A stretch of DNA of 42,044 nt, taken from the IMG/VR virus record IMGVR_UViG_3300034025_000089, positions 1-42,044 of that record; one strand, 5' to 3'. The position numbers and the translations under genes were made by a program. Source of the DNA: a virus (taxonomy: Duplodnaviria; Caudoviricetes). Under the pieces are notes generated by a model. That model was not told where the DNA came from, ran no database searches, and saw only the letters and a list, made by a program, of their open reading frames with translations. Of this stretch, positions 4,189-39,520 are shown piece by piece (positions within the stretch are counted from its first letter, which is position 1; each line of letters opens with the position of its first letter).

Positions 4189-4764
4189 GCTCGAGACCCT
4201 CTAAAAAGTTACCGCGATCCACCCTTGGTGCTTTCAAAAACGACAGGGGATCCACCAACCCCCCGCCGCCGGCGGGCACACTTCCACGTCACCGCCGCGC
4301 GAAAGGCGCGCTTCGGCTTGAGCAGGATGAATTTGTTTTACCGGCTCGCGGCATATCCGGCAGAAGAGCCCGCCAATGAATTTCGTTGTCGTTCCGCGGC
4401 CCAGGAACCGGGCGCGGCACGAAATGTCGAACAACATGAATTGAAACGGCGAGCATCATGCCGCGCGACCAAGCGCCGGCGCCGCGCTGGATAGATCCAG
4501 CCCGAAAATCCGATCGCAACTGTCGAGCCGAAAGCCCGCAAGCATAGGAACCACCCCATATGCGGGAACGCGCGGCCCGCCTTTTCGGCTGATCCCGCAC
4601 CCTTCCCGCTTGCACCCCGGCCCATCGCCGTGTCACCCAAAGCTGCGCGCCCGATTCGGCGTTGTCAATCCGAAAACCCGAACCCTGACCCCGCGCCCCA
4701 TGCCGTCGCTGCAAATTTACCGCGTCTCCGAACCGCCGACAGGATCGGGGGAACCCGATTTAGC

Positions 4765-4885
4765 CCAGAAATTTTACGTGTATCGCGCGAAGGGGGGGAA
4801 TGGACAGGCGCGCGTGGCTTTGGGGGGGCCGGGGGGCCTCGCCACGATCCGCGGGCCGCGGGCCGCGGTGAGGAGGGGGGCTGTC
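4765..4885. other. Candidate packaging (pac/terminus) region with G/C runs next to an AT-rich patch
   Basis: Non-coding gap just downstream of TerS with AGAAATTTTACG, GGGGGGG and GGGGGGGCCGGGGGG. Function is inferred from position and composition. Confidence 0.35.
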
Positions 4886-4974
4886 TCAACCATGTCTAGA
4901 CCCGGCGAAATGCGCCCGATCGGCCCCGCTCAGCCCCTCTAAGCGGTGCGCGACCTGAGACGCCTCGGCCTAGT

Positions 4975-5508
4975 CTACTCGCGCGAGACGATTTCGCCGT
5001 CGACCAAGGCGCCGTCCCAATCGATCGGCCCGTCGCTGCCGAGCGCGTTGACCTGGGCGGCGATCGCCTCGAGCTGCGCGGCGCCGACGCCAGGCCCGCC
5101 GGCAAGCACCATGACCATATCGTGCTTCTGGCGCACATCGAGCGTCACCGGCTGCTTGCCTTCGATGTACGGGAGGAGCTCGGCCGCCGCGCGGATCTGG
5201 ATCTTGAACGCCTCCTCTTTCGAGCAGCCGAGCTCGGCCGCCAGGAGCTCCACCGGGCGATCGTAAGCGCGCGCCAAGGCGACGCCAGGGTGCGAATGAA
5301 GCGAGAGGATCTGGTCGCGGAACTTCGTGTTGCGCTTGTTCCGAGCGCCAGGCGGCCGACCGCGGCCGCGATATTCGGCCACGGCCGAGGCGGCGTCCCG
5401 GTTCGGCGTCGCATCGCGGATCAGCTCGAGCTGCTCGGCGTCAGGAAGCGCGGCAAGGTCCCGCGCGACGGCGAGATCAGCCTCTAGCGGCGTTGGAGTA
5501 TCAACCAT
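4975..5508 (-). CDS. terS: Terminase small subunit (177 aa)
   Basis: Has the GRGRPPGARNKRN motif and AAAELLPYIEGK helix, lies upstream of TerL, and the ATG at 5508 is preceded by GGGGTGG. Confidence 0.75.
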   Translation of the reverse strand: MVDTPTPLEADLAVARDLAALPDAEQLELIRDATPNRDAASAVAEYRGRGRPPGARNKRNTKFRDQILSLHSHPGVALARAYDRPVELLAAELGCSKEEAFKIQIRAAAELLPYIEGKQPVTLDVRQKHDMVMVLAGGPGVGAAQLEAIAAQVNALGSDGPIDWDGALVDGEIVSRE

Positions 5509-5591
5509 CTGAATATCCACCCCTTTTTTTATTCCAACGGCCGCGACGTGCTCGCCGTCGACCGCGATCGGGAGCCTAACACAGCCGCGAC

Positions 5592-5845
5592 TTGTTCCCA
5601 AAGCCCCGCCGTTGGAAACAACCTTGGAAACACAAAAGCCGAGCGATTTCAGCCGCTTGCCTGTACTGTTTCCAATGTTTCCAACGTTCCAAGGTAAATG
5701 AAGGTATACGCGCGCACGCGCGAGCGCATGCACATATGCTCACCTCGTGTTTCACTGGAAACAGTGGAAACAACGCCATAAGTCGTTGGTGTTATTGGGT
5801 TATGTTGTTTCCAAGGCTGGAAACAAAGCTGGGAACATGGGAACA
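5592..5845. repeat. Iteron array TGG(A/G)AACA in both orientations; probable replication origin
   Basis: About 12 copies start at about 5593, 5613, 5625, 5667, 5676, 5685, 5748, 5756, 5765, 5806, 5818, 5830 and 5838 (some degenerate). They surround a central alternating purine/pyrimidine tract (5704-5738) in a locally AT-richer non-coding region. Confidence 0.75.
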
Positions 5846-6224
5846 ACCCCCGGCCCCTGGTAGAGCGGGCAATCTGGCCCTCTTTGTGCCCGAAGGCAAG
5901 GGCGCGGGTGCGGGTGCGGAAAGAGAGCTTGCCACACCCACCGCCACCGCGCCGCCGGCGACAAGGGCGCGGGATCACCGGGCGGAAGGATGAGCGGCCG
6001 ACCGCGCGCACCAGGCGCCGGCCTTCGGCCGCCACCTTGCGCGGTCGAGTTGCGGCCTGGCGGCCTATCTCCTCGAGCTGACGCTCGAGGAGGAAAGGAC
6101 GATCGCGCGCACCAGGTCGACGGCCTAACGGCCGCCAACCTTGCGCGATCGGCGCCCGCTAGGCGGGCTAAGGGTGTTGCATCAAAACCACACATCAAGC
6201 TCAAACGCAGAAAATTTGCTTGCC

Positions 6225-6311: not shown

Positions 6312-6452
6312 ATGGTTGTGATCGACCGAGCCGCGGCGGCGAGGGCAATGGCGAAAGCGATCGCCTACAAGCAATGCGGCAAAGACCAGGAGGCGGCCGA
6401 TTGGGCGCGCCAGTTGGTCCAACTCCTCGAGTGCGCGGACATTCTTCGGTGA
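6312..6452 (+). CDS. Small early protein (46 aa)
   Basis: Strong RBS, sequence MVVIDRAAAARAMAKAIAYKQCGK..., GTGA overlap with the next gene. Confidence 0.7.
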   Translation: MVVIDRAAAARAMAKAIAYKQCGKDQEAADWARQLVQLLECADILR

Positions 6453-6658
6453 GCGCCGACCTCTTTGGACCTCGCCCGCCGCGCCGCAAGCCGCGCGTCA
6501 TGATGCACTACGTCGACGCGGGCTGCTTACCCGGCGGCCAAAGCGGTGCCCACTTCGTATGCGGCCGCTGCGGCCACGACGCAGGGTGGATGCCCTGCTC
6601 AGCCAATGTTTCCGAGATCCGCCGGGGCAAGCCATGTCCCCAATGCAACCCCGAATAG
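6449..6658 (+). CDS. Zinc-ribbon protein (69 aa)
   Basis: CGRCGHDAGW and CPQC cysteine pairs. Confidence 0.7.
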   Translation: MSADLFGPRPPRRKPRVMMHYVDAGCLPGGQSGAHFVCGRCGHDAGWMPCSANVSEIRRGKPCPQCNPE

Positions 6659-6669
6659 GAGAGACGCCC

Positions 6670-7341
6670 ATGCAGATTGAACGCGCCTACATCGACGCCG
6701 CCCAGGTCGCAAAAATGGTGCGGAAGGCTCTCAAGGAGAGCTTCCCCGGCGTGCCGTTCAGCGTCCGCACGTCGAAATATAGCGGCGGCGCCTCGATCGA
6801 CATCGACTATCTGGACGGCCCGCCGATCGCGGCCGTTGAAGCGGTCGCGAAGATCTACGCCGGATCCTACTTCGACGGCTCGATCGACTATAAGGGCGCC
6901 GTCTACCACTTGCTCGACGGCAAGCCGGTGCGCTTCCTTGCAAACTTCGTGTTCGTCAACCGCCAGCTCTCGGCCGCCGCGCTCCGCAAGGGGATCGCCG
7001 CCTATCGGGCCGCCGGCAACGACGCCGCTGGCCTCGATGTCGAGGAGTTCACGAACTACAAGGGCAAGCCCGACGCCCGGCTTTCCGGCAAGGGCGCGGG
7101 CGAGCAGATCTGGGGAGCCGATGGGCGCCCCTATTATGCCGAGCTCGCCCTCGCGACCTGGTTTGACCAGGGCCGCCCGGCGGCCGAGATCGAGGCGAAG
7201 CCCAGCGCCGAGCTCGCCCGGCTCCAGCTCGCCGGCGACGATGGGTACAGCCGGCAATGCGGCGCCGGCCTCTCCCACGAAGGCCCGGAGCTGAACCTGG
7301 CCGCCATACCGGCAGAGCGCGCCGCCGCCTCGCTTCACTGA
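6670..7341 (+). CDS. LPD29 (large polyvalent protein-associated domain 29)-like protein (223 aa)
   Basis: Pattern AKMVRKALKESFPGVPFSVRTSKYSGGASIDI.Y.DGP...FDGSIDY...FVFVNRQLS with an AGGAG RBS. Confidence 0.8.
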   Translation: MQIERAYIDAAQVAKMVRKALKESFPGVPFSVRTSKYSGGASIDIDYLDGPPIAAVEAVAKIYAGSYFDGSIDYKGAVYHLLDGKPVRFLANFVFVNRQLSAAALRKGIAAYRAAGNDAAGLDVEEFTNYKGKPDARLSGKGAGEQIWGADGRPYYAELALATWFDQGRPAAEIEAKPSAELARLQLAGDDGYSRQCGAGLSHEGPELNLAAIPAERAAASLH

Positions 7342-7406
7342 TCCCCCAAGACGGCGCCGGCCACGATCGGCGCCGCGATGATGGGACCAGCCCTAGGAGA
7401 ACGAAC

Positions 7407-7601
7407 ATGGCGAGCCCGATCTTTTCCATTCTGATCTGCACCGCCCGCGGCGACCTAATCGAAACCAAGCGCATGAGCTACGATCGCGCGCGCCGAGCCT
7501 ACGACAGCCTTGAGCCGAACCGCGACGGCTGCCTAGCCCGCGTAGAGCTCCACCAACGCGGCGCCGCAATCTTCAAGAAAGAACGCAAACTCGGCGCCTG
7601 A
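7407..7601 (+). CDS. Hypothetical early protein (64 aa)
   Basis: AGGAG RBS; sequence begins MASPIFSILICTARGD. Confidence 0.65.
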   Translation: MASPIFSILICTARGDLIETKRMSYDRARRAYDSLEPNRDGCLARVELHQRGAAIFKKERKLGA

Positions 7602-7842
7602 TCCCCACCGACGAACCCCGAACGAAGGAGACAAACCATGTGCCTCGAGCGTCTCCTGGCGATCGCCAGGGACCACAAGACCAGCACCGAGGAGGAGCCG
7701 CGGATCGAGAACGGCCGCGTCGTTATCCCGATCGATGTCAAGCTCGCCGGCGGCGGGTGGGGGATCACCTACGAAACCGCCGGCAACCGCGCCGAGCTGC
7801 TTCAAGCGCTCGGCTACTGATCCCCACCGACGAACCCCGAAC
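7598..7842 (+). repeat. 26-bp direct repeat CTGATCCCCACCGACGAACCCCGAAC flanking one gene
   Basis: Exact copies at 7598-7623 and 7817-7842. Each contains the upstream stop codon and leads into the next RBS. Confidence 0.9.
7638..7820 (+). CDS. Hypothetical early protein (60 aa)
   Basis: AAGGAG RBS; lies between the two direct repeats. Confidence 0.7.
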   Translation: MCLERLLAIARDHKTSTEEEPRIENGRVVIPIDVKLAGGGWGITYETAGNRAELLQALGY

Positions 7843-7855
7843 AGGAGGAACACCA

Positions 7856-8299
7856 ATGATCTTCAAAACCGACACCTGCCCACCCATGCACCCCGGCGCC
7901 GAGACCGGCCTTCCGCGGGTCCACATGGAGTTTGCAAACGGCTACACGGCGAGCATCGTATTCGGCCAGCTCAGCGCCTATCTCGCCTATCTCGACCCGT
8001 TCGGGGCGGTGAACCTGGACAGCCAGGAAGCATCGCCGGAGCAAGTCGCCCGCTTCCTTATGGGCGTCGCCACCATGAAGCGGCCAAGCCGCAAGGAGCT
8101 CGGCGTCACCGCCCGCCAGATCGAGGCTTTGGAGGCCGCGCGGGACAAAGGCGGTGCGATATTCGCCCGCGGCCGCAACATGGGCGGCGCCTTCAAGCGC
8201 CTGTGCGACGGCCTTGCCCGCCGCGACTTGGTTGAGCGCCGATCGCCGCACCCGATCACGGACAAGGGCCGCCGGATCCTCGACCTGTTGAACCTTTGA
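7856..8299 (+). CDS. Hypothetical protein with winged-helix-like C-terminus (147 aa)
   Basis: AGGAGG RBS. The ending TARQIEALEA...LARRDLVE...ITDKGRRIL resembles a wHTH. Confidence 0.65.
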   Translation: MIFKTDTCPPMHPGAETGLPRVHMEFANGYTASIVFGQLSAYLAYLDPFGAVNLDSQEASPEQVARFLMGVATMKRPSRKELGVTARQIEALEAARDKGGAIFARGRNMGGAFKRLCDGLARRDLVERRSPHPITDKGRRILDLLNL

Positions 8300-8317
8300 C
8301 GGAAAGGAAGGGGTGGA

Positions 8318-8698
8318 ATGACCAAGCTATACCACGACAAGGGGGCCTGGGTCATACCAGGCAACCAGGAGCGGGGCGCTGAGCGCGTCGACGTTCCCAG
8401 CGCACCGCAAGCGCTCGCCGATTGGCTGAACTACCGGCGCGTGCCTCCGATCGCAGTTCCGACGCAACCGGCGCCAAGCCCGCCGGCGCCGGCGGCCGCT
8501 GCGCCCCCGAACACGCCGCCGACCGTAGGAGGGGAGCCCCCGAACGAACGTAAGCAGCGCGCGGCCGAGCTCCTCGCCATGGGCGACGACGCCGACGCGA
8601 TCGCCGCGTGGATCCTGGGAGCCGCACCCTGGCAGATCGAGCGCCTGTTCGGCACGATCGGGGCGCGGGTGTCCGAGCTGGTAGGAGGCGCCCGGTGA
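8318..8698 (+). CDS. Hypothetical protein with Pro-rich linker (126 aa)
   Basis: ORF with RBS and GGGGTGG immediately before the ATG; coupled to the next gene. Confidence 0.7.
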   Translation: MTKLYHDKGAWVIPGNQERGAERVDVPSAPQALADWLNYRRVPPIAVPTQPAPSPPAPAAAAPPNTPPTVGGEPPNERKQRAAELLAMGDDADAIAAWILGAAPWQIERLFGTIGARVSELVGGAR

Positions 8699-9171
8699 AA
8701 ACGCTAATCCTCGCGTGCAGCGCGACCAAACGGCCGAGCTCGGCGCCGGTGCCGGCGATCGAGCTCTACGATGGGCCGGCCTTTCGCACCGTGCGGAAGA
8801 ACCGGCGCCAGGATCTCGCCGTGCTGATCTTGTCGGCCGAGCACGGCTTGATCGCCGAGCACGAACGGATCGCCACCTACGATCGCAAGATGGACAGGGC
8901 GCGGGCGGCCGAGCTCGCCGACCAGGTAGGGCGGACGTTGCTCGAGCTCGAGCGCGCCGCCACGCTCGCGTGCAACGTCCTCCTCTACGGCGGCGCCGCC
9001 TACCGCCTGGCCGTTCGGCTCGGCCTCGAGCGCAACCGCGGCGAGTTCCTGTGGCGCCGGATGCACCGCACCCGCGGCGCGATCGGCGAGCAGCTCGGCC
9101 AGCTTAAAGCCTGGCTCACCGCGGCGCCGGCGGCCCGCCACTGGAACGCAGACACGATGGAGCTCGCATGA
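8695..9171 (+). CDS. DUF6884-like (YaaA/TGT-associated) protein (158 aa)
   Basis: Pattern LILACSATKR...PAIELYDGPAF...ILSAEHGLI.....IATYDRKM, then YGGAAY and GAIGEQL. Confidence 0.75.
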   Translation: MKTLILACSATKRPSSAPVPAIELYDGPAFRTVRKNRRQDLAVLILSAEHGLIAEHERIATYDRKMDRARAAELADQVGRTLLELERAATLACNVLLYGGAAYRLAVRLGLERNRGEFLWRRMHRTRGAIGEQLGQLKAWLTAAPAARHWNADTMELA

Positions 9172-9359
9172 AGTGGCGGCACGATGAGCGGCTCGAGGCG
9201 CGCGGCTACCGGGATCCCGACGATCGCAAGGCTTTCGGGGGCGGCTACAGCGACGGCTTCCACGGCTATCGAATGTGGGCGAGCAACGAGCGGGATTGGC
9301 ACCCCAACGCCTACAGCGCCGGCTATTGGGAAGGCAAAGCCGACAAGGAAGGCGCATGA
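9168..9359 (+). CDS. Hypothetical protein (63 aa)
   Basis: ATGA-coupled; repeated GYxDG and AYSAGYWEG motifs. Confidence 0.6.
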   Translation: MKWRHDERLEARGYRDPDDRKAFGGGYSDGFHGYRMWASNERDWHPNAYSAGYWEGKADKEGA

Positions 9360-9520
9360 ACGCTACAGCCCCGAACACGAAGGTTCCTTGCGACGGGTGC
9401 GGCGGCAACGGCCGCGGCCGCTACCCACCCACCTACGAGCTGAGCAAGTGCCGGCGCGACGGGTGCAACGGCAAAGGGTGGATCACCTACAAGAAGCTAA
9501 CCGAAATCAAATGGTACTAA
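9356..9520 (+). CDS. DnaJ-type Cys-rich zinc-finger microprotein (54 aa)
   Basis: CDGCGGNG and CRRDGCNGKG (CxxCxGxG-like). Confidence 0.65.
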   Translation: MNATAPNTKVPCDGCGGNGRGRYPPTYELSKCRRDGCNGKGWITYKKLTEIKWY

Positions 9521-9529
9521 GGAGGACGT

Positions 9530-9787
9530 ATGAGAGGCCACACCGATCGGGCAACGATCAACGCGCGAAAGCCGCTGAGCGAAGCCATGGCAACGATGCT
9601 GCGCCGCGTCCGCGAGCTCGAGCAGCGCGCCGAGGAAAAAGGAAGCGAGCCGATAATCTGGCGCGAGCTGACCAATGCGGACAAGAACAGGATCCGCGCC
9701 CTTCGCGACCGCGGCCTGGTCTACCAGGTCGGCAGCACGCTGGACTATATCCTGCAAACCGACGCAGGAAAGGCGACCGAGCTATGA
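9530..9787 (+). CDS. Hypothetical protein, possible winged helix (85 aa)
   Basis: TAAGGAGG RBS; contains ALRDRGLV...LQTDAGK. Confidence 0.65.
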   Translation: MRGHTDRATINARKPLSEAMATMLRRVRELEQRAEEKGSEPIIWRELTNADKNRIRALRDRGLVYQVGSTLDYILQTDAGKATEL

Positions 9788-10146
9788 ACACACCCCCGAA
9801 CAACCCAGGGAACGGGGCGAACGACGCGGCCGCGATAGCCGCCGACGAAGCGCGCGAGAAGCGCCTCGCCGAGTGCAAGGCTTACGCCATGCGCTTCCTC
9901 GACCAGCGCGACCCGGATCTTGCCGGCGCCCTGGTCGCGTTCGCCAGCGAGGCGGCGAAACCCTATGCGGACAAGCCGCACCTGATCGAGCTCGGGAATG
10001 CCTTTTGGGCCTTCGCCGCCGGCAAGATGATACTGGCCCGCGTCGACCAGGGGACCGAGGAGCTCGGCGGATCAGAGGAGGCCGCCCGGATCGTCCGACT
10101 TGGCGAGCGCGAGAATATGCGGGCATGGATCAACGGTTTTCGGTGA
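9784..10146 (+). CDS. Hypothetical protein (120 aa)
   Basis: ATGA-coupled start, MNTPPNNPG... Confidence 0.65.
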   Translation: MNTPPNNPGNGANDAAAIAADEAREKRLAECKAYAMRFLDQRDPDLAGALVAFASEAAKPYADKPHLIELGNAFWAFAAGKMILARVDQGTEELGGSEEAARIVRLGERENMRAWINGFR

Positions 10147-10160
10147 ACGGAGGTTCGACT

Positions 10161-10478
10161 ATGGCGAATTGGCACACGGCGAACAGGCGCCGCCGCAGGC
10201 AGTTGGGAACGGCACCCTCTCTAACCCTGCCGGGCGCAGTCCCGCCTTTCACAAGCAAGAGCGGTGAACTTATCGGCTTTTGGGACGATGAAACGTCATG
10301 GACCCGAGCCTTTCTCGAGGACCGCCGCGAGTCGTTGGAGGATGCCGAATGGCGTCGGCTCTATCAGGCCAAGTTTCCTCCGCCTACCGAGGAGGAGATC
10401 GCCTACCAGAAGCGGAAGCGCGAGCGGGACCACATCTACGATGACCTCTACGTCACAAGGTACGGGGACAGAATATGA
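10161..10478 (+). CDS. Hypothetical protein (105 aa)
   Basis: GGAGGT RBS; its stop overlaps the recombinase start. Confidence 0.6.
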   Translation: MANWHTANRRRRRQLGTAPSLTLPGAVPPFTSKSGELIGFWDDETSWTRAFLEDRRESLEDAEWRRLYQAKFPPPTEEEIAYQKRKRERDHIYDDLYVTRYGDRI

Positions 10479-11071
10479 AAATCGGCTACGCCCGCGTCTC
10501 GAGCGCCGGCCAGAACCTCGAAACCCAGGTCGCCGCCCTCGAGGCCGCCGGGTGCGAGCGGATCTTCCAGGAGAAGCGCAGCGGAACGTCGACGGACGGC
10601 CGCCAGGAGCTTGAGCGCGCGCTGGACGCGCTTCGCCCCGGCGACACCCTCACCGTGACCAGGCTTGACCGCCTGGCGCGCTCCGTGGGCGATCTGCACC
10701 GCATTGTGGAGCGGATCGACGCCGGCGGCGCCACCTTCGCCTGTTTGCAGCAGGGCGGCGTCGACACCACCAGCTCGACAGGCAAGCTCATGCTGGCGAT
10801 CCTGGGCGCCGTTGCCGAGTTCGAGAACGACATTCGCCGCGATCGCCAGCGCGACGGGATCGAGCGGGCGAGGGAGAAAGGCGTGTATCAGCGCCGCAAG
10901 GCCGGCAAGAAGATCCCCGAAGCAAAGCGCCGTCAGGTTGTGGAGCTGCTCGACGCCGGCAAGCTCGGCCCAACCGAGATCGCGTCGACAGTTGGCATCG
11001 GCCGCGCAACCGTTTATCGGATCGAGGCAGAGATTCGCCAAGAGAGGCAGGATCTTGAGGGCGTCACATAA
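10475..11071 (+). CDS. Small serine recombinase (resolvase/invertase family) with C-terminal HTH
   Basis: N-terminal IGYARVSS..QNLE.Q catalytic-Ser motif, VTRLDRLARS, AEFE, and C-terminal EIASTVGIGRATVYR. Confidence 0.95.
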   Translation: MKIGYARVSSAGQNLETQVAALEAAGCERIFQEKRSGTSTDGRQELERALDALRPGDTLTVTRLDRLARSVGDLHRIVERIDAGGATFACLQQGGVDTTSSTGKLMLAILGAVAEFENDIRRDRQRDGIERAREKGVYQRRKAGKKIPEAKRRQVVELLDAGKLGPTEIASTVGIGRATVYRIEAEIRQERQDLEGVT

Positions 11072-11271
11072 GCGTAAAGAACCGTATCGCGCCCGCAACA
11101 GTACCGCATAAACAAAGTTAACAATTTTGGCGGTAAGTATTACCCGCGAGACTCGCCGCCCTGTAACCGTATAGGCGGCCCGCTTCGCCCCCATGGGGAG
11201 AGTCGGCATACCACCCCTTGTCGACTCGGGGGCGACGGCCGCCGTTCCGAAAGGGGCGGCGGCCGCCCCGC

Positions 11272-11280
11272 TTATCCACA
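11272..11280 (+). promoter_or_regulatory. Perfect DnaA box TTATCCACA
   Basis: Exact consensus, 6 bp upstream of the predicted sRNA -35 element. Confidence 0.55.
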
Positions 11281-11286
11281 GGGGCT

Positions 11287-11314
11287 TTGCAAGGAATTTG
11301 AATCGGGCTATCTA
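11287..11314 (+). promoter_or_regulatory. Sigma70-type promoter for the predicted sRNA
   Basis: TTGCAA (11287-11292), 16-bp spacer, then (GC)TATCTA (11309-11314), resembling alphaproteobacterial TTG...GCTANAWC promoters. Confidence 0.6.
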
Positions 11315-11320
11315 GGCCAC

Positions 11321-11420
11321 AACTCGCGCGTGAGCGTTCGCAAGTTTAACCACCCCCGCGAAACCGATCGAGCGAAACCTCCCCGCCGGCGGACCCTCGA
11401 GGGCGCCGGCGGTTTTTTTT
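11321..11420 (+). ncRNA. Predicted structured small regulatory RNA with loop seed AACCACCCCC
   Basis: It has an upstream promoter and a downstream intrinsic terminator, with no credible ORF. It folds as a CTCG/CGAG closing stem, a CGC-GTGA-GCG GNRA hairpin and a TTCGC/GCGAA stem with a 16-nt loop. The seed is complementary to a motif before about 15 phage start codons. Confidence 0.65.
11383..11420 (+). terminator. Rho-independent terminator
   Basis: CCGCCGGCG...CGCCGGCGG stem followed by T8. Confidence 0.85.
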
Positions 11421-11548
11421 GGCGGCGCTGCGGCCGCTCAACCAGGTTAGCCGCTTCGGGGCTTGACCGGCCAACCGCCCCGACTCATTCTGCACCTGGT
11501 CGGCGCGGGTGATCCCACAGATCTTAAAACCCCAAAAGCCCGCGCCGG

Positions 11549-11983
11549 CTACAGCACCTTACGGATGGAGAGGTTGTCCACTGCAAGGTTGGTGTTCGGA
11601 CTCGCAAACAGGATGGCACCCGTCCCAGCCTGGGCTACAATGTCCTCGACATAGACGCCTACAGCGCCTCGGATCGTTCCTACCCCGTTGCCATAACGCA
11701 CCGAGACGCCGCCGGTGGTGTAGGATACGACCTCGAACGAAACCCGGTAGGTCGCGCCGATTTCTGCAAGGGGCGTGTTGGGATTCGAACACCCGCGCGG
11801 GACGCCAGTCGTCGCGGCTGTCATGACGCCGCTACCGAGGGTCCAGGATGGACCGACCCACCCCGCGACATCGTCAAATGTGCCGTTGACCGCCAGCTCC
11901 GGCCCAAGGCCGCCGCCACCCGGCGCCGGCGCCGCGTGCCTGGCGATCGCCGCCGGCGAGACGGCCGAGCCGCTCACCAGCAC
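11549..11983 (-). CDS. Putative head fibre / carbohydrate-binding jelly-roll virion protein (144 aa)
   Basis: A Gly/Pro linker precedes ELAVNGTFD...TYRVSFEV...VDNLSIRKV, typical of galactose-binding-like beta sandwiches. It follows a spike-base-like gene. Confidence 0.55.
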   Translation of the reverse strand: MLVSGSAVSPAAIARHAAPAPGGGGLGPELAVNGTFDDVAGWVGPSWTLGSGVMTAATTGVPRGCSNPNTPLAEIGATYRVSFEVVSYTTGGVSVRYGNGVGTIRGAVGVYVEDIVAQAGTGAILFASPNTNLAVDNLSIRKVL

Positions 11984-11984
11984 G

Positions 11985-12212
11985 TCAGTAACCGATCTTG
12001 ACGGTGCCGGCGGACACGGCGCGGATCTTGATCGCCGCGATCGGGTTGACGCCGCGGTTCAGCGGCACGCCGTCGACATCGCCCCCATCGGCCTGGGTAA
12101 TGTCGGCCGTGCAATCCTCGCTGGCGAGGATCGCGCGGCATTCCGCGAACGAAACGCCGATCGTCGGCATCGTGATGGTCGTAAGGGAGCCGAGACGGCT
12201 TGCATTGCTCAT
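11985..12212 (-). CDS. Putative head spike base protein (RcGTA Rcc01079-like), 75 aa
   Basis: CRAILAS..CTADIT.ADG.DV.GVPL..GVNPIAAIKIRAVS resembles the Rcc01079-family pattern as I recall it. Confidence 0.5.
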   Translation of the reverse strand: MSNASRLGSLTTITMPTIGVSFAECRAILASEDCTADITQADGGDVDGVPLNRGVNPIAAIKIRAVSAGTVKIGY

Positions 12213-12263
12213 GATTTTCCACCCCTGGAAAGCTGGCCTCTCGGCCCGACAGGCAAGGGTGTA

Positions 12264-14129
12264 TCAGTCCTCGGGCGTCAGGTCCACGATCGCCTCGAGC
12301 GGAACCAGCGTCGACCACAAGGCCGCGGATCCGGCGAACCGCACGTTGACCCGCTTGATCGCGGCCGCGTCGACCTCGAGATCGCGGCCGCCATGGTCCG
12401 TAATCGTCAGCTTGCGGACGGCGCCCGCCTGGTCGAGCAGCTTGACGCGGGCGAGGGCCTGGGACCACACGCCTTCCGCCCACCGGCTCCCGTCGAAGAT
12501 CTTGGCAAGCGCTTCGTGCTTGTTGGCGATCGCCAGGAACAGCGCCTTGCCGGCGACCGGCTTGACGGCGCCGATCGCGCCCTTCTCCGTCGCCCTGGCG
12601 TTCACGATCTTCATGCCGAAATTCTCGAGGCGATCCATCGCGTAGCGCGCGGAATCGTCGGCACCGAGCGCGCGCTTGATGTGGCGGGTGACCGGCATGG
12701 GCTCATCGCCGCCGCGGCTCTGCAAGTGCCGCGAGCCGAGATATTGCACCGCTTCTTCTTCGTCCGACACATCGCCCGCCTTCTCGGCCATGCTCGAGGC
12801 GGGAAGCATGGCACCCCAATGGCTGAGCAGCGCCTTGTCGGGCGCATGGTCGTAGAGGAGGAGATCCGCGCAGGCGAGCAGCGTCCCGAACTGATCCTGC
12901 GAGCGGCCGTTGTGGCCGGCGTCGCCGAGCGCCTGACGATAGGCTTGCAGCGTCGTTTCGAAGCGTGACCATTGTGCGACCAGGCGCGCCCGCAATTCGC
13001 GTCCCGTTTCACGCAACGCGCCTTCATCGATAACCGGCGCCACCGCCCCATCGGGGATCCGCTCGAGCTCGAGCATGGCGAGGCGGTTGCGATCCTGGGC
13101 GAGCTGCGGCGGAACCAGGATCGAGGAGAACAGGAAGCAGCTTCGCGCGGTGAACTCATGCGCGTTGTGATCTTGGCCGCCGCGACCGATCTTGCCGCCC
13201 GAGCTCGCCAGGCGCGCCAGTTTGATAACCGCCTTGTTGCGCCGGTTGTCGCCGCCTTCGTCGGGCTCGAGCTCGTCAAAGAATACGGGCATGGTTTGCA
13301 GGCCGAGAAGCTGGCGGATCGCCGCCTCGGTTGCGTCGTGCGTATGGAGCGCGCCACCGTCCATCAGCGCCTCGAGCGCCATTTGCAGCGTCGACTTGCC
13401 GGTCGAGCTCGAGCCCGTAATCCAGGCGTGCGGGCGCCAGCGCAGCACGCCGCCGATCATCGCCGCGCCGACCCAGCCCAACAGAAAGAACGGATCCACA
13501 TCGGGCCGCGCCCAATACCAGGATCCGAACAGCGACAGCAGGCTTTCGGCCGAGACGCCAAGCGAGGTGGCCGGCGCCGGGCGCGGGATCCCCGGCGCCG
13601 TGGGGTAGACGAAGCGCCCGAGCTTGCCGGGCTGGTGGTAAACCGCCCCGTCCTTGCCGGCGACAAGCACCACGTCGCCGCAATGCAGGATCAGTTCGCC
13701 GTTTAACCCACGGTGCGCGCCGCGATCGCGCACCTTGCCTTGCGGATCGAATATCCCCTCGAAGGCGGCCGCGCGGGCGAGCAGATCGCTTGCCACCTGG
13801 GGCTTCCACCCGTTTTGCTTGCCGTTGTCGCCGAACCGCGGCCACAGTTCATCGCACAACGCCGATTGGCGGCCGAACAGGTTGCGGATATTCTTGTCGC
13901 CCATTTTCTGGGGCTCGAGCGCGACGAGCTGGCCGAGTTCATCCAGGAAGTAGCAGACCTGGCCGAGCTTCCCCAAGGGAATGACCGGGCAGCGCGGATC
14001 CAGGAGCGGCAGTTCGGGTTCGTCGGCGACTTCCTCGCGCGGCGGCCGCGACACCTTGGGCGCCGGCAAAGCCTGGTCGATCGCCTCACCTACCACGCGA
14101 AGGCCGCTGCGCGCGCGATCGTCACTCAT
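12264..14129 (-). CDS. Replicative helicase (P-loop, SF3/DUF927-like) partnering the primase (621 aa)
   Basis: Walker A GSSSTGKST, Walker B FFDELE, RLASSGG and FLFSSI motifs; directly downstream of the primase. Confidence 0.85.
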   Translation of the reverse strand: MSDDRARSGLRVVGEAIDQALPAPKVSRPPREEVADEPELPLLDPRCPVIPLGKLGQVCYFLDELGQLVALEPQKMGDKNIRNLFGRQSALCDELWPRFGDNGKQNGWKPQVASDLLARAAAFEGIFDPQGKVRDRGAHRGLNGELILHCGDVVLVAGKDGAVYHQPGKLGRFVYPTAPGIPRPAPATSLGVSAESLLSLFGSWYWARPDVDPFFLLGWVGAAMIGGVLRWRPHAWITGSSSTGKSTLQMALEALMDGGALHTHDATEAAIRQLLGLQTMPVFFDELEPDEGGDNRRNKAVIKLARLASSGGKIGRGGQDHNAHEFTARSCFLFSSILVPPQLAQDRNRLAMLELERIPDGAVAPVIDEGALRETGRELRARLVAQWSRFETTLQAYRQALGDAGHNGRSQDQFGTLLACADLLLYDHAPDKALLSHWGAMLPASSMAEKAGDVSDEEEAVQYLGSRHLQSRGGDEPMPVTRHIKRALGADDSARYAMDRLENFGMKIVNARATEKGAIGAVKPVAGKALFLAIANKHEALAKIFDGSRWAEGVWSQALARVKLLDQAGAVRKLTITDHGGRDLEVDAAAIKRVNVRFAGSAALWSTLVPLEAIVDLTPED

Positions 14130-15240
14130 TTACACCACCCCACAAATTATCCTGCGCGCCGGCGTCCGATTTCGGATCTACCAGCTCGTTATAATCCTTC
14201 ACGCCCTTGGGCGGGTAAGCGAGCCGCACGTCGCGGCCTGCGCTTTGGTGCCTGGCAACGGCGCGCTCGAGCGCGTCGATCGCGCCCTGCTTTTCGTCGC
14301 GCTGCGCCAGGATGATGAGCGGCCCCATGTCGGGCGGCAGCACCAGGGCGCCGATGTTCGACAGGGAGATCGCGGCAATGACGCGGTATTGCGGGCGGGC
14401 CATGGCCGCGGTGAGCCCGTCCTCGATCCCTTCCGAGACCAGGATCGGCTCGCCGGCCTTGTGGTGGCGCATGGATTGAGCGCTCTCCCCCTTCCACAAG
14501 GGGATGAAGCCGCCGGCGAACTTGCCGAGCGCCTTTTTCGGCTCAACCAGGCCGGCCTTCCCGGATCCATCGGGGCGGATCCACGTCCGGTGCGTCGCGA
14601 CATGGTGCCCCTCGAGGTTGACCACGCCGGCGACCATGCACGGCATCTTCTTCTCGACTTCCTTGCAGTAGACTTCCGGGTGGAACTTGATCGAGCCCGG
14701 CGAATCGAGCCCCACCGCCCGAAGGTCGATCCCCCGCGACACCAGGTAGGCTTCGGCCGCCGTTCCGGGGATCGGCCGCGCCGACAGGTAAAGGTTCTGC
14801 GCCGATCGGCGGCGCTGCTCGGCAACCTTGGCAGCTTCCTGTTGGGCGTCGTTCGCGGCCTTGTTCGCCTCGGCGCGGCGGGTGGCGAGCCGGTTCGGAT
14901 CGAGCCCATCGAGGCCAAGGTAGGAGATCCCCCAGGAGATCGCGTCGGCAAGGTTGCCCCCGAACCGAACGCGCGCCGCCAGCCAAAGCAGATCCCCCGA
15001 ACGTTCGGGGCTCTTGTCCGGTGCCGAAAAGTCCGTCCACACGCCGCGCATCGGGCCGCCCAGGTTCAGCGCCAGGCTTTGGCCCGGCTCCCCCTCGATC
15101 GAGCCGACGCGCCAATAGCCGCACTCCTCGCGGCCGTTTGGCAACAAATGGGTTGCAACCGCCTGCACCTGGCCGCGAAGCATTTGCTCGAGCTCGCGCG
15201 GCTCGATCGCGACCCGGCTCTTGGGGCGGTTGTCACTCAT
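14122..15240 (-). CDS. Toprim DNA primase (P4 alpha / DUF7146-like), 372 aa
   Basis: N-terminal LLPNGR...WRVGSIEGEPGQSL...WTDF...GDLL, then AEAYLVSRGI, HRTWI and the Toprim motif VSEGIEDGLT. Confidence 0.88.
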   Translation of the reverse strand: MSDNRPKSRVAIEPRELEQMLRGQVQAVATHLLPNGREECGYWRVGSIEGEPGQSLALNLGGPMRGVWTDFSAPDKSPERSGDLLWLAARVRFGGNLADAISWGISYLGLDGLDPNRLATRRAEANKAANDAQQEAAKVAEQRRRSAQNLYLSARPIPGTAAEAYLVSRGIDLRAVGLDSPGSIKFHPEVYCKEVEKKMPCMVAGVVNLEGHHVATHRTWIRPDGSGKAGLVEPKKALGKFAGGFIPLWKGESAQSMRHHKAGEPILVSEGIEDGLTAAMARPQYRVIAAISLSNIGALVLPPDMGPLIILAQRDEKQGAIDALERAVARHQSAGRDVRLAYPPKGVKDYNELVDPKSDAGAQDNLWGGVNE

Positions 15241-15485: not shown

Positions 15486-15640
15486 GCCCGTACCTCCCCG
15501 GCGAGCTGCTCGGCCGCGGCGCACAGCGCTTCGATCTTCTGGCGCTGCTTGGGCGTCACCGTGCCGCGCAGCCTGCCCGCCGGCACGTTGTCGCGCACCC
15601 ACCAGGCGAGTTCGCGAACCTGGTTAGGATCCGGCTTCAT
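15482..15640 (-). CDS. Hypothetical protein (52 aa), MKPDPNQVRELAWWVRDN...
   Basis: ATGA overlaps on both sides; below the ORF-track size cutoff. Confidence 0.6.
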   Translation of the reverse strand: MKPDPNQVRELAWWVRDNVPAGRLRGTVTPKQRQKIEALCAAAEQLAGEVRA

Positions 15641-16227
15641 TGACCGCCCTCCGCTTGCGCCAGAGCCTCCTCGAGCGCCACGAAGCCGGGGCAGGGATCA
15701 TCGAGCGCAGCCGTGCATTGGTCGGCATAGGTTGCGAGCGTCGCACCGCAGCGATTGCAGATCGCACCGTCCGGCAATCGCTTGCCGATACGATCGGACA
15801 ATGCCGCCGCACCGCAGCACGTTTTGAGTTTAGCCGGCGGATCCATCGGCACCGGCGGCGCGCCGGCGAGCTCGGCCACCTGGCGCAGCTCGGCCGACAG
15901 CTCGAGCGCGTCGGCCGCGCCATAGCGGGCAATCAGTTCGTCGCCCAGGAACAGGTTGACGCCCCAGCTCCCATCGGCCTGGCGCGCGGCCACGGCCCTG
16001 ATCGGCATATGCCCGTCGATCAGTTGCAGCCGCACCCGATCTCCCCAGGCCGAGACCGGCACGGCGCCGATCGTTAGAACGTGGATCCGCATGGCGAGCT
16101 GGGGCTCGGGCTCGACCTGGCCGCACTCGATCCGTCCGAACAGCTCGGGCGAAATGCCGAGCACGGCCGCGGCGACGTGATCCTGGATGCCGAAGCGGTG
16201 CCGCCACTGGCGCAGACCGTTCCTCAC
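15637..16227 (-). CDS. XRE-type HTH protein with C-terminal Cys-rich domain (196 aa)
   Basis: HTH LRQWRHRFGIQDHVAAAVLGISPELFGRIECG, plus ICNRCGATL and C...CPGF. Confidence 0.7.
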   Translation of the reverse strand: MRNGLRQWRHRFGIQDHVAAAVLGISPELFGRIECGQVEPEPQLAMRIHVLTIGAVPVSAWGDRVRLQLIDGHMPIRAVAARQADGSWGVNLFLGDELIARYGAADALELSAELRQVAELAGAPPVPMDPPAKLKTCCGAAALSDRIGKRLPDGAICNRCGATLATYADQCTAALDDPCPGFVALEEALAQAEGGQ

Positions 16228-16831: not shown

Positions 16832-16852
16832 GAAACCACCCCTCTAAAGCTC

Positions 16853-17080: not shown

Positions 17081-17103
17081 AACCACCCCTCACAACCTGG
17101 CCC

Positions 17104-17370
17104 TCAGACCAGTGCGAGCTGTCCGAGCGGCGCCTTTGGCGTCTCGCTCGGCTTCACCCGCGGATAAAAATCGTCGGCCGAAAGGCCGGTCAGCTCGCGC
17201 ACCAGCGGCATGTGGTCCTTGGACGGCACGCGCCGCCCGCTTTCCCAGGCATGCCACGTCGCCTTGTGCGTCGGAGCGCCGTCGACAACGATCTGCACGG
17301 CCGCTTCCTCGAGCGTCAGGTTGCGCGACTTGCGCCACTCGATCAGCTTTTGAACCGGCGTGTGCTTCAT
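17104..17370 (-). CDS. Cro-like XRE HTH regulator (88 aa)
   Basis: Contains LIEWRKSRNLTLEEAA...KATWHAWESGRRVP and is the first gene of the leftward operon from the divergent promoter region. Confidence 0.85.
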   Translation of the reverse strand: MKHTPVQKLIEWRKSRNLTLEEAAVQIVVDGAPTHKATWHAWESGRRVPSKDHMPLVRELTGLSADDFYPRVKPSETPKAPLGQLALV

Positions 17371-17501
17371 GGCGCCGATTGTTGTCAGTTCGCAAACCGA
17401 TTGACAAGCCCATTTATCCACAGCATTAAAAGTTGTCGGAACCGCAACAGACCCAAAGGGCGACGGTCCCCGGCGAACAACCCGAACAGTGGGGTGGTAA
17501 C
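17371..17501. promoter_or_regulatory. Divergent early promoter/operator region with DnaA box
   Basis: TTGACA at 17401-17406 overlaps a leftward TTGTCA. TTATCCACA lies at 17414-17422. Related operator-like sites GTTGTCAGTTCGCAAAC and GTTGTCGGAACCGCAAC flank it. Confidence 0.7.
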
Positions 17502-20984: not shown

Positions 20985-21036
20985 AACCCACCCCTCTTCC
21001 ATCCGGCTTGATCGCCGGGATCCTTTTGATTTCGAG

Positions 21037-21648
21037 TTAGGCGGCCGCCCGGTACAGCGCCGCCTCATCTTTGCGCCGGCGCACCAGCCCTTCCAGCTTG
21101 CGGCCGCCGCCGTTCACCCACTTGCCGAACTCGGCCGCGGCGCCGGCATAGTCCCCGGCCAGGTGCAGCCGGAGCAGGCCGCTATCGCCAAGCCCTTCCG
21201 GCGTATGGTCATTGTCGATGTCGGAGCCGCAATTGTAGGCGAACGAGACCATCGCATCGAACTGCCCCTGGGTCGCGCGCTTGCCGGCGAGCAGGAATCG
21301 AACGGCTTCCTCGAAAGCGCGCACGTCCTCGAGGAGCCGGCGATCGGCTTGCTCCTGGGTCCACACCAGGCCGGGGCCGATGCCGGCGCCGGTGGCGCCA
21401 TAGCCGATCGTCCAAATGCCGGCGGGGCACTTGTAGGCCGAGAGGCGCAGCCCTTCGTAGCGCTTGATGAGCTCGATCGCGGCCGAGCTCGCACGCTGGG
21501 CCCCGGCGCCGATCGGCGCGGCGCCGGCGCGTGGCACGCCCAGGCGGTCGAGCAGCGCGTCGACCTCCTGGACTTCCGGCGTGGTAAAGCGCCGGCCTTC
21601 CCGCTCGGCCGTGATTGCGTCGAAAACCCCCTTACGTGGCTGATCCAT
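21037..21648 (-). CDS. Endolysin, GH24 (T4/P22-like lysozyme), 203 aa
   Basis: Catalytic region IKRYEGLRLSAYKCPAGIWTIGYG (E-x8-C-x5-T), QGQFDAMVSFAYN and GLVRRR. Confidence 0.93.
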   Translation of the reverse strand: MDQPRKGVFDAITAEREGRRFTTPEVQEVDALLDRLGVPRAGAAPIGAGAQRASSAAIELIKRYEGLRLSAYKCPAGIWTIGYGATGAGIGPGLVWTQEQADRRLLEDVRAFEEAVRFLLAGKRATQGQFDAMVSFAYNCGSDIDNDHTPEGLGDSGLLRLHLAGDYAGAAAEFGKWVNGGGRKLEGLVRRRKDEAALYRAAA

Positions 21649-21856
21649 GATTACCCTCCCCTTGCGATCCTAGTTTGCTGAGCGTCTCGAGCAGCGCCGG
21701 CGGTACTGGTTCGTCGACTGTGCTTTGGTACATGCGCCGCAGCTCGATGCTGGCAACGTCGCTCGCGAATGTGATAGGGCCGCCCACCGCTTCGAGCAGC
21801 CGATCGGCCGCGGCGAAGCGCATTTCGACTGCCCGGCGCGCCGAGGCCCTATTCAT
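21632..21856 (-). CDS. NepR-like anti-sigma factor homologue (74 aa)
   Basis: LRRMYQSTVDEPVPPALLETLSKL matches the NepR core LRxxYxxxxxExVPxxxxxLLxxL. It overlaps both neighbouring genes. Confidence 0.75.
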   Translation of the reverse strand: MNRASARRAVEMRFAAADRLLEAVGGPITFASDVASIELRRMYQSTVDEPVPPALLETLSKLGSQGEGNHGSAT

Positions 21857-22052: not shown

Positions 22053-22128
22053 GTTACCACCCCCTTTGCGGGCCGCCGGCGCTTTGCGCTCGTCCAGCCC
22101 TAGTCTCACCCACGCCGGGCGAGCTAAA

Positions 22129-24753: not shown

Positions 24754-24777
24754 TTTCCACCCCCCGGTGAAGGGGAA

Positions 24778-39092: not shown

Positions 39093-39316
39093 CGGGGCCT
39101 CCCTGCAAAAAGTTACCTTCCTGCGAGGGGCTTGGCGGCTGTTGGGCCGGGCCTCTCTATCACTTTAACGGCTGCGGTCGCCGGGTGATTTCCCCACCAA
39201 GGTCCGGGGCCAGTTACGGCTTGGCCGGTTTCCTCAAAGCCCACCCCTGGGATTAGAGACGGCCGCCAAGTTCACACGGAACCAAGCGGCCGTCAAGACG
39301 TTTGATCGCGAAGCGA
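39093..39316 (-). promoter_or_regulatory. Long structured leader / late promoter region of the capsid gene
   Basis: About 220 nt non-coding. TTGACG overlaps a GACGGCCGC/GCGGCCGTC stem, a GGGGTGG site lies at 39241-39247, and the RBS is AGGGAGG. Confidence 0.5.
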
Positions 39317-39520
39317 TCAACCAGCAGGCGTAAAGTTTGCCTTAACGGCCCACATCGCCGCCTGCTCGTAATTCGTGATCGCGATCGACCGCTCCCGGTT
39401 TCCCGGCACATTCTCGCGAAGATAATCGAGCAGGGCTTCGGTGCGCTCCTTGATGCCCGCTACAACGTCGCTGCCGCTCGGGTTGAAGCTGGGAAGGGTG
39501 CTCGCTTTTTCGTCGGCCAT
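39317..39520 (-). CDS. Acb2/Tad1-like helical hairpin anti-defence (nucleotide sponge) candidate (67 aa)
   Basis: FNPSG..VV..IK...LL...RERSIAITNYEQAAMWAVKA with an AGGAG RBS. Confidence 0.7.
   Translation of the reverse strand: MADEKASTLPSFNPSGSDVVAGIKERTEALLDYLRENVPGNRERSIAITNYEQAAMWAVKANFTPAG

Follow-up and report, generated by a model that had tools for sequence, protein, structure and literature searches.

Two predicted small RNAs whose loops mirror a start-site tag in a phage genome

Can a phage genome carry small RNAs that address many of its own genes through a motif shared at their starts? The question is raised by a locus between the resolvase and helicase genes of a virus record, for which an earlier note had proposed one trans-acting RNA as a regulator of about 15 phage genes. 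The window, which is the whole stretch of DNA analysed here (42,044 nt), represents a complete virus record, has direct terminal repeats and is 66% GC. Gene calls, made with a simple script in the window and in its relatives, together with family scans give the layout of a podovirus, with portal, terminase, capsid, tail, endolysin, Toprim primase and a primase/helicase-like gene. The sequencing runs that contain window DNA are biocrust metagenomes, and no RNA run is among those listed. Helicase homologues with a named source, at 41-45% identity, belong to Sphingomonas, Allosphingosinicella and Rhizorhabdus, which points to a sphingomonad host. No close cultured or plasmid relative was found, the best capsid match being 41% and the best helicase match 42% among phages and 31% among plasmids. 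Comparison of 11100-11600 with cultured phages by blastn returned one 27-nt match, which is at chance level. The window was found to have no tRNA or tmRNA.

The locus lies directly downstream of a small serine resolvase gene (10475-11071, plus strand). The early cassette (6312-11071, plus strand) encodes LPD29 and DUF6884 domains, and an intergenic unit is repeated in it near 7599 and 7818; in relatives MPTase-PolyVal and DUF2958 occupy this region. An Acb2/Tad1 hairpin-domain protein, likely an anti-defence nucleotide sponge, is encoded within the head operon (39317-39520, minus strand), and a small gene between the putative holin and the endolysin (21632-21856, minus strand) gave a NepR anti-sigma-factor match barely above the cut-off. 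The stretch 4700-5000, between the terminase genes TerS and TerL, is non-coding and rich in G/C runs, with similar runs in the clade and in outgroups, and GGAAACA-like words are repeated upstream of TerS at 5590-5900; both stretches are possible packaging or origin signals. Two distant sphingomonad-associated relatives (L062 and L063) display dense TGC-type repeats, with 41 and 69 copies of TGCTGCT.

Start tags and hairpin loops of the window

GGGGTGG occurs 24 times on the two strands of the window, and 15 of these copies sit 1-8 nt ahead of an ATG on the gene strand. In 200 dinucleotide shuffles the mean was 0.65 and the maximum 3. It is the top 7-mer before ATG in the window, with 16/24 copies within 10 nt (binomial p ~4e-10). 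The same word stands before ATG in 79/668, 97/1010 and 90/967 cases in three alphaproteobacterial genomes, and the enrichment of the window over a Sphingomonas genome has a Fisher p of 1.6e-8. Shine-Dalgarno (SD) spellings that contain A are rare before ATG (GAGGTGA 1/2, GAGGTGG 0/2, GGGGTGA 1/4), as is G6 (1/15). AGGAG or GGAGG is found instead before other genes of the window, among them those for the capsid and scaffold-like proteins and most of the early cassette. Because of these two facts, the rarity of the A-containing spellings and the use of AGGAG or GGAGG elsewhere, the tag marks a subset of genes.

Each of the 15 sites that the earlier note listed was confirmed on the gene strand, 1-8 nt upstream of an ATG. 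One of them, at 11209, had been taken for a target; it is in fact the loop of a second plus-strand hairpin (stems 11200-11208 and 11219-11227) and hence a second seed, and the frame that starts there is antisense to the resolvase. Once it is removed there are 14 true start tags, of which one precedes a frame of only 29 codons, so that 13/55 called genes, about a quarter, are tagged. On the minus strand, tags were found at 712-718 before the portal gene (ATG 708), which crosses the record end to 40970, at 1666-1672 before a RyR-domain gene (ATG 1660) and at 1931-1937 before a 78-aa gene (ATG 1927), most orthologues of which have GGGAG instead. The tag at 4551-4557 precedes the 29-codon frame (ATG 4545), which lies between TerS and TerL and is uncertain as a gene. 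The tag at 5517-5523 precedes the putative small terminase gene TerS (ATG 5508), whose name comes from its position and from the label in the earlier note, its PHROG match being of unknown function. Further tags on this strand belong to a 75-aa gene (12219-12225, ATG 12212), the primase/helicase-like gene (14135-14141, ATG 14129), a 50-aa gene (16836-16842, ATG 16831) and the first gene behind the Cro-like gene (17083-17089, ATG 17080). In the lysis and tail region they precede a gene behind the endolysin that looks lipoprotein-like from its sequence (20988-20994, ATG 20984), the putative holin gene (22057-22063, ATG 22052), labelled by position and size with no family match, and the tail-fibre gene (24757-24763, ATG 24753). 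The two tags of the plus strand stand before an early-cassette gene (8310-8316, ATG 8318) and before the gene that opens the divergent early operon (17491-17497, ATG 17502). The other early-cassette genes keep AGGAG sites that match neither of the loops described below.

The tag could itself act as an SD sequence. For the 14 tags, pairing with what we take to be the anti-SD core is predicted at -9.7 to -15.8 kcal/mol. The predicted values for the loops against the same tags are -15.5 to -21.1 kcal/mol, which is stronger than the anti-SD at every site, and the match between loop and tag is a perfect complement of 7-10 nt.

The locus consists of two tandem predicted RNAs on the plus strand, RNA-A (~11176-11270) and RNA-B (~11321-11420), and both hold CCACCCC unpaired. 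RNA-A is preceded by a -10-like hexamer (11170-11175, plus strand), and no -35 match is present at 17 nt in the window; in 4/4 relatives examined the RNA-A promoter is of the TTG-17-TATA type. Its predicted helices, 11185-11192/11228-11235 and 11200-11208/11219-11227, leave a 10-nt loop (11209-11218) that contains CCACCCC at 11211-11217, with an unpaired probability of 1.00 for the seed. The fold of 11176-11280 is better than that of shuffled sequences (z -3.13, 0/200 as good). At the 3' end there is a GC hairpin (11237-11264) with a GAAA loop and without a U-tract, so RNA-A may read through into RNA-B. Between the units lies TTATCCACA (11272-11280, plus strand), a 9-mer that we take to be DnaA-box-like. 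A copy lies between the units in relative G004 too, a second window copy is at 17414-17422 in the divergent early control region, and relatives G002-G005 have 9-mers like it close to the RNA locus or to the early control region.

RNA-B is the unit that had been described in the earlier note, and its promoter-like site (11287-11314, plus strand; TTGCAA at 11287-11292, a 16-nt spacer and TATCTA at 11309-11314), loop, second C-rich stretch and T8 are all where they were reported. The loop (11342-11357) holds AACCACCCCC with the seed CCACCCC at 11350-11356, for which the unpaired probability is 0.93. The 3' end is a terminator-like GC stem (11383-11412) followed by T8 at 11413-11420, a tail that is compatible with Hfq dependence. 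A consensus promoter and terminator scan of the window listed neither the promoter nor the terminator of RNA-B. As for the compact fold described for this unit, RNA-B alone folds no better than shuffled sequences (z -1.14, 28/200 as good). Support for a regulon of the second C-rich stretch, the linker ACCTCCCC at 11377-11384 (unpaired probability 0.74), goes no further than one 9-nt match (15485), and the stretch could not be told from a generic anti-SD sequence.

At 8 nt, RNA-A matches 10/55 and RNA-B 8/55 called genes, which places them at ranks 5 and 39 of 26,239 genome windows, ranks that are not clean p-values because the seeds were chosen after the tags had been seen. A sibling contig of depth 4, which is weak evidence, has a 2-base insertion in the 11209 frame and an A-to-G change that keeps the stem as a U-G pair. 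In a near-identical sibling (X2) one contig covers 10988-11383 and has no difference in 11225-11383, being too close and too shallow to weigh, and a sequencing run (X3) gave no long piece at the RNA locus.

Loops and tags in the relatives

Relatives were collected by helicase, primase and TerS scans, and the clade shares its gene order with the window. There are 15 records, of which G001-G005 have the locus, G006-G008 are clade fragments without it and G009-G015 are outgroups; G006, G007 and G008 are incomplete and inform on tags only. The helicases of G001-G005 are 50-58% identical to that of the window. Neither pattern scans with the RNA-B core and the RNA-A tag nor the primase and TerS scans yielded a further genome with the locus, and metagenome and genome scans gave only the twin of G001 and distant kin.

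Both units are found at the same site in all five relatives, where RNA-A keeps its architecture. The loops are other ones, and the start tags differ to match. In G002-G005 RNA-B has a promoter like that of the window, a long hairpin with C7-8 at the tip and a terminator-like hairpin. G6 runs stand before ATG in 6/14, 12/20, 8/15, 14/27 and 10/22 cases in G001-G005, and GGGGTGG in 1/7, 1/4, 0/1, 0/3 and 0/1. Orthologous starts switch in place, TerS having G6 in 7/7 clade orthologues, the helicase G6-7 in G002-G005 and the tail fibre G6-8 in six genomes (G001-G005 and G008). The C-run is predicted to be partly paired in the tip stem of RNA-B in several relatives.

It was observed that the relatives have a second class of tag on the early cassette, from TerS to the resolvase, and this class is complementary to the tip of RNA-A. 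The tag is GAGCACCGATC in G002-G004, which share one seed (7/55, 7/40 and 5/49 genes at 8 nt; up to 14 nt), GGAGCACTA in G005 (4/52 genes at 8 nt; up to 13 nt) and GAGCAACC in G001 (3/46 genes at 8 nt; up to 11 nt). In these matches the 3' half of the SD is paired together with the spacer that leads to the start codon, and this spacer is not read by the 16S tail. Four seed states of RNA-A are thus known, that of the window and three others, and each matches its own genome best at a perfect complement of at least 8 nt. The two seeds of the window, when set against the five relatives, match 0 called genes at 8 nt in each. Gene 8318 swaps its tag class together with the RNA-A loop, with GGGGTGG in the window and an RNA-A-type tag (AGGAGCA...) in 5/5 orthologues. 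RNA-A folds beat 200/200 shuffles in all six genomes (z -3.05 to -5.18). An extra RNA-A-type tag without its own ATG was seen shortly upstream of a tagged early start in three genomes (G002:11480, G003:5656, G004:37750).

A joint change of seed and tag in relatives, which the earlier note had named as a check, was thus seen in four relatives and weakly in the fifth. G001 has G6 tags, yet its RNA-B has other loops; at 8 nt its RNA-A matches 3/46 genes (rank 0.063) and its RNA-B 1/46 (rank 0.43). The idea of one trans-acting RNA survives in part, in that the loop matches a start tag across replication, packaging, tail and lysis genes, but there are two units and, in relatives, two sets of genes. 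Since G002-G004 form one tight clade in the tree (FastTree; G015 was left out for too few core matches), the number of independent changes is about three for RNA-A and one clear change for RNA-B. In an unbiased scan, non-coding-strand C-runs elsewhere in the relatives tie with or outrank the RNA-B loops, and counts of duplexes at -13 kcal/mol with G-U allowed fail, for several seeds, to tell the own genome from foreign ones. Only 4 consensus pairs came out of an automatic alignment of the six RNA-A units, and covariation in RNA-B concerns 5/42 pairs, from 3 sequences. The set of tagged genes varies between genomes. In the seven outgroups neither tag was among the top enriched words.

One further site stands apart from the starts. 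The major capsid gene has a GGGGTGG copy at 39241-39247 (minus strand) in its 5' leader, 148 nt upstream of the capsid ATG, and G5-7 occupies the aligned position in 6/6 relatives. The distance from this tag to the ATG is 146-218 nt across genomes, and the tag lies close to the predicted 5' end; the genomes share no start codon downstream of it, and predicted loop duplexes at it reach -25 to -29 kcal/mol in G002, G004 and G005. The leader (39095-39260, minus strand) is conserved and structured and lies behind a TTGAC promoter-like site with an inverted repeat; when it was aligned with those of G001, G002, G004, G005, G006 and G008 several stems were kept in 7/7 sequences. It has no Rfam match. 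In the consensus fold a pyrimidine stretch adjoining the tag pairs with the capsid SD. An activation switch in this leader was considered and found no support, as in most genomes the exposure of the SD hardly changed when the tag was blocked in silico (in the window from 0.19 to 0.17; the largest rise, in G008, was from 0.28 to 0.43).

Repression, its alternatives and the lifestyle of the phage

On balance we think it probable that the two predicted RNAs repress the tagged genes by masking their ribosome-binding sites. The proposal is built on what can be read in the sequences, namely the tags and the pair of mirror loops, a cassette shared with five relatives and the matched changes of loop and tag, and on predicted folds, promoters, terminators and pairing energies. 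Host RNA polymerase would make both RNAs steadily. The GC-rich loop would bind the tag more tightly than the 16S tail does; the tag is the SD site itself or, for RNA-A of the relatives, the 3' half of that site together with the nucleotides between it and the start codon. Pairing between loop and tag would block the entry of ribosomes, and tagged genes would be translated only while their message exceeds the RNA. This would allow a burst on entry into a naive cell and silence once the RNAs accumulate. It would also set a threshold for leaky replication, packaging, tail and lysis transcripts, to be passed as replication and late transcription increase. RNA-A of the relatives would be responsible for the early accessory cassette, and their RNA-B for the entry points of replication, virion and lysis genes; in the window both loops would have converged on one tag. 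The position of RNA-A, at the end of the early cassette whose tags it mirrors, would suit shut-off by feedback, as in zygotic induction. Among the points that speak against repression are the RNA-A of the window, which has neither a -35 match nor a U-tract, and the other early genes there, which match neither loop.

Pairing could also have a different outcome. The RNAs could act mainly by message decay or premature termination, for which P4 CI RNA is a precedent (PMC4825925), and the capsid-leader tag, which covaries, lies ~150-220 nt before the start near a predicted 5' end and forms the strongly paired predicted duplexes described above, would fit such a mode. However, 14/15 sense-strand sites overlap the ribosome-binding position, and decay or termination as the main mode is unlikely. 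It is likewise improbable that the RNAs switch translation on, or time it upward, by opening leaders or bridging to the ribosome. The tagged set does include genes that are needed late (terminase, portal, fibre, lysis), the lineage is without sign of integration, and the capsid-leader tag adjoins the pyrimidine stretch predicted to pair with the capsid SD. The RNA-B of G002, G003 and G005 also holds a G-rich, SD-like strand, but this strand is missing in the window, G001 and G004 and is predicted to lie within the closing helix; a ribosome-adaptor role was rejected because only 3/6 RNA-B units have it. The tag, moreover, pairs with the anti-SD unaided and RNA pairing would cover it, and blocking of the capsid-leader tag barely alters SD exposure in most genomes.

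Other readings do without RNA pairing altogether. The tags might be nothing but the SD spelling of this lineage, with G-U wobble, and the C-rich loops a generic anti-SD-like sequence or chance, as GGGGTGG and G6 both pair with the anti-SD (energies computed for the window) and C-runs are common in these 66% GC genomes. This is weakened because loops and tags covary. Within the same genomes AGGAG or GGAGG serves other genes, a single-base switch is mirrored in both window loops, the RNA-A matches of up to 14 nt span a spacer that the 16S tail does not read and the capsid-leader site has no shared start codon; a plain spelling is therefore very unlikely. A protein of the phage or the host might instead read the tags at the RNA or DNA level, the reverse copies being operators or decoys beside two promoters, and a Cro-like protein and DnaA-box-like 9-mers are at hand. 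A study of the SAS motif of mycobacteriophages, in the text available, leaves protein or RNA binding open for that motif (PMC3203893). We give this reading little credence, since the tags are strand-specific and at ribosome distance, the reverse copies are in loops of folds that beat shuffles and an RNA decoy would bear the tag itself and not its complement.

The earlier note had seen no CI-type repressor gene. A single Cro/C1-type HTH gene does exist (17104-17370, minus strand), co-oriented with the replication genes, while no divergent CI-like partner for it and no integrase were found in the window. By Pfam, applied to 58 window proteins and 83/87 listed non-structural proteins of G001, G002 and G005, each of these four genomes has one stand-alone Cro-like HTH gene and a resolvase; no integrase or S24 domain was found in them, and a divergent, Pfam-negative repressor is possible. 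Additional HTH signals are a weak match at 15637-16227 and a winged-helix protein in G005. No antirepressor family was found among the 58 window proteins scanned and no partition gene among the window proteins, and no plasmid record or cultured member of the clade was found. In four outgroup proviruses (94/115 listed proteins scanned) the picture is different, as three have a divergent HTH pair and the fourth has one HTH gene and an integrase match; one of the four has an S24 protein. The provirus class applies to 0/6 genomes with the locus vs 6/7 outgroups. The RNA cassette thus appears to accompany the loss of the usual repressor switch, which counts as one event on the tree. We are least sure of the suggestion that the system stands in for CI by supporting a non-integrated carrier state and immunity, rather than timing a purely lytic cycle, and the carrier-state part is weakened because no partition gene was found.

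Known systems and meaning

No Rfam family accounts for the locus. The Rfam search that the earlier note had suggested, so as to exclude c4 and other known families, gave 0 matches in the window at gathering and only sub-threshold ones at E up to 5, and c4, P4 CI and the other Rfam phage antisense RNAs had none at E up to 5 in 9700-13000. On the plus strand, RNA-A is overlapped by a single Rfam match, to 6C (RF01066; 11197-11271, 23.7 bits vs a gathering score of 47, E 3.9). The 6C sRNA of Actinobacteria resembles RNA-A in that a second hairpin comes after one whose loop is C-rich; its loops pair with the G-rich ribosome-binding sites of many messages and repress them, and panD is repressed by the C-rich loops on an AGGGGGG ribosome-binding site (PMC6486639). 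However, 6C has C-rich loops in both hairpins and the second hairpin of RNA-A has a GAAA loop. Also, 6C as described is host-encoded with constant C loops, whereas the window RNAs are phage-encoded, have seeds that change with lineage and match the phage's own tags.

Among phages, c4 of P1/P7 and sar of P22 are like the window RNAs in being phage RNAs that block translation at a ribosome-binding site; c4 blocks ant translation via loop-held pairing sequences and is linked with heteroimmunity between relatives (PMC12197685). In the account available c4 and sar each control the antirepressor message only, whereas the window has 14 tagged starts across modules. P4 CI RNA is an RNA that serves as the immunity factor of a phage-plasmid (PMC4825925), but it is described as processed from its own operon and as terminating via two flanking sites, whereas the window has stand-alone predicted units that mirror distant starts. 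VpdS (VP882) and PreS (lambda) are trans-acting phage sRNAs with several targets; in the passages on them they are Hfq-bound and lysis-promoting with mostly host RNA targets, and a shared phage start tag is not described (PMC12197685). In the zygotic induction of Reg576 (p576) scattered entry genes share a regulatory tag and are on until repressor accumulates, but this repressor is a DNA-binding protein on promoters, whereas the window has predicted RNAs on start tags (PMC6294495). The RNA-A cassette resembles such a plasmid establishment setting through its polyvalent-protein domains, LPD29 and MPTase-PolyVal. A lead from pLS20 ended in work on a protein repressor and yielded no RNA precedent.

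The SAS of cluster K mycobacteriophages is a private, asymmetric motif of unknown function at the ribosome-binding position of 11-19 genes, and four of the phages each carry one reverse copy (PMC3203893, PMC12699233). Like SAS, the window tag stands in one orientation at ribosome distance from ATG and has a rare reverse copy. SAS differs in being an unrelated 13 nt, confined in the published text to non-structural genes of phages with integrase and repressor, whereas the window tag is another 7-mer. No RNA partner for SAS is named in the main-text passages, supplements aside (PMC3203893, PMC12699233). It was found that the right 36 kb of phage Anaya has 16 forward SAS copies and one reverse copy, and the reverse copy (JF704106, ~59830-59905, gp96-gp97) lies over the 10-nt loop of a predicted long intergenic hairpin, which appeared in 3/3 folding windows of this one phage with no shuffle control.

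The window system would work like 6C, c4 and sar, recalls P4 CI RNA and is a member of none. What would set it apart among anti-RBS RNAs is its breadth, the two channels, the lineage-specific seeds and the missing CI switch. The remark in the earlier note that no regulon of such breadth has been described stands for the literature searched, mostly without subscription papers and supplements, in which no phage RNA matched to a genome-wide start tag was described. A bolder picture, which we consider doubtful at present, is that these phages gave up CI and integrase, that a dormant non-integrated state is run by a two-RNA address code in which seed switches create new immunity groups, and that the same design explains SAS in cluster K and is a general mode of phage control.

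The phage antisense RNAs covered in the consulted part of a review control one or a few messages (PMC12197685). The phage studied here appears to have rewritten the ribosome-binding sites of 13/55 called genes into a private tag that small RNAs can address. In its relatives there would be two separate channels, and the code appears to change between lineages. The reverse SAS copy in the predicted hairpin loop of Anaya, a cultured phage of Mycobacterium smegmatis, bears on a question about SAS that has been open since 2011. If the reading is true, phage developmental control and immunity can reside in RNA pairing rules that are missed by protein-based annotation.
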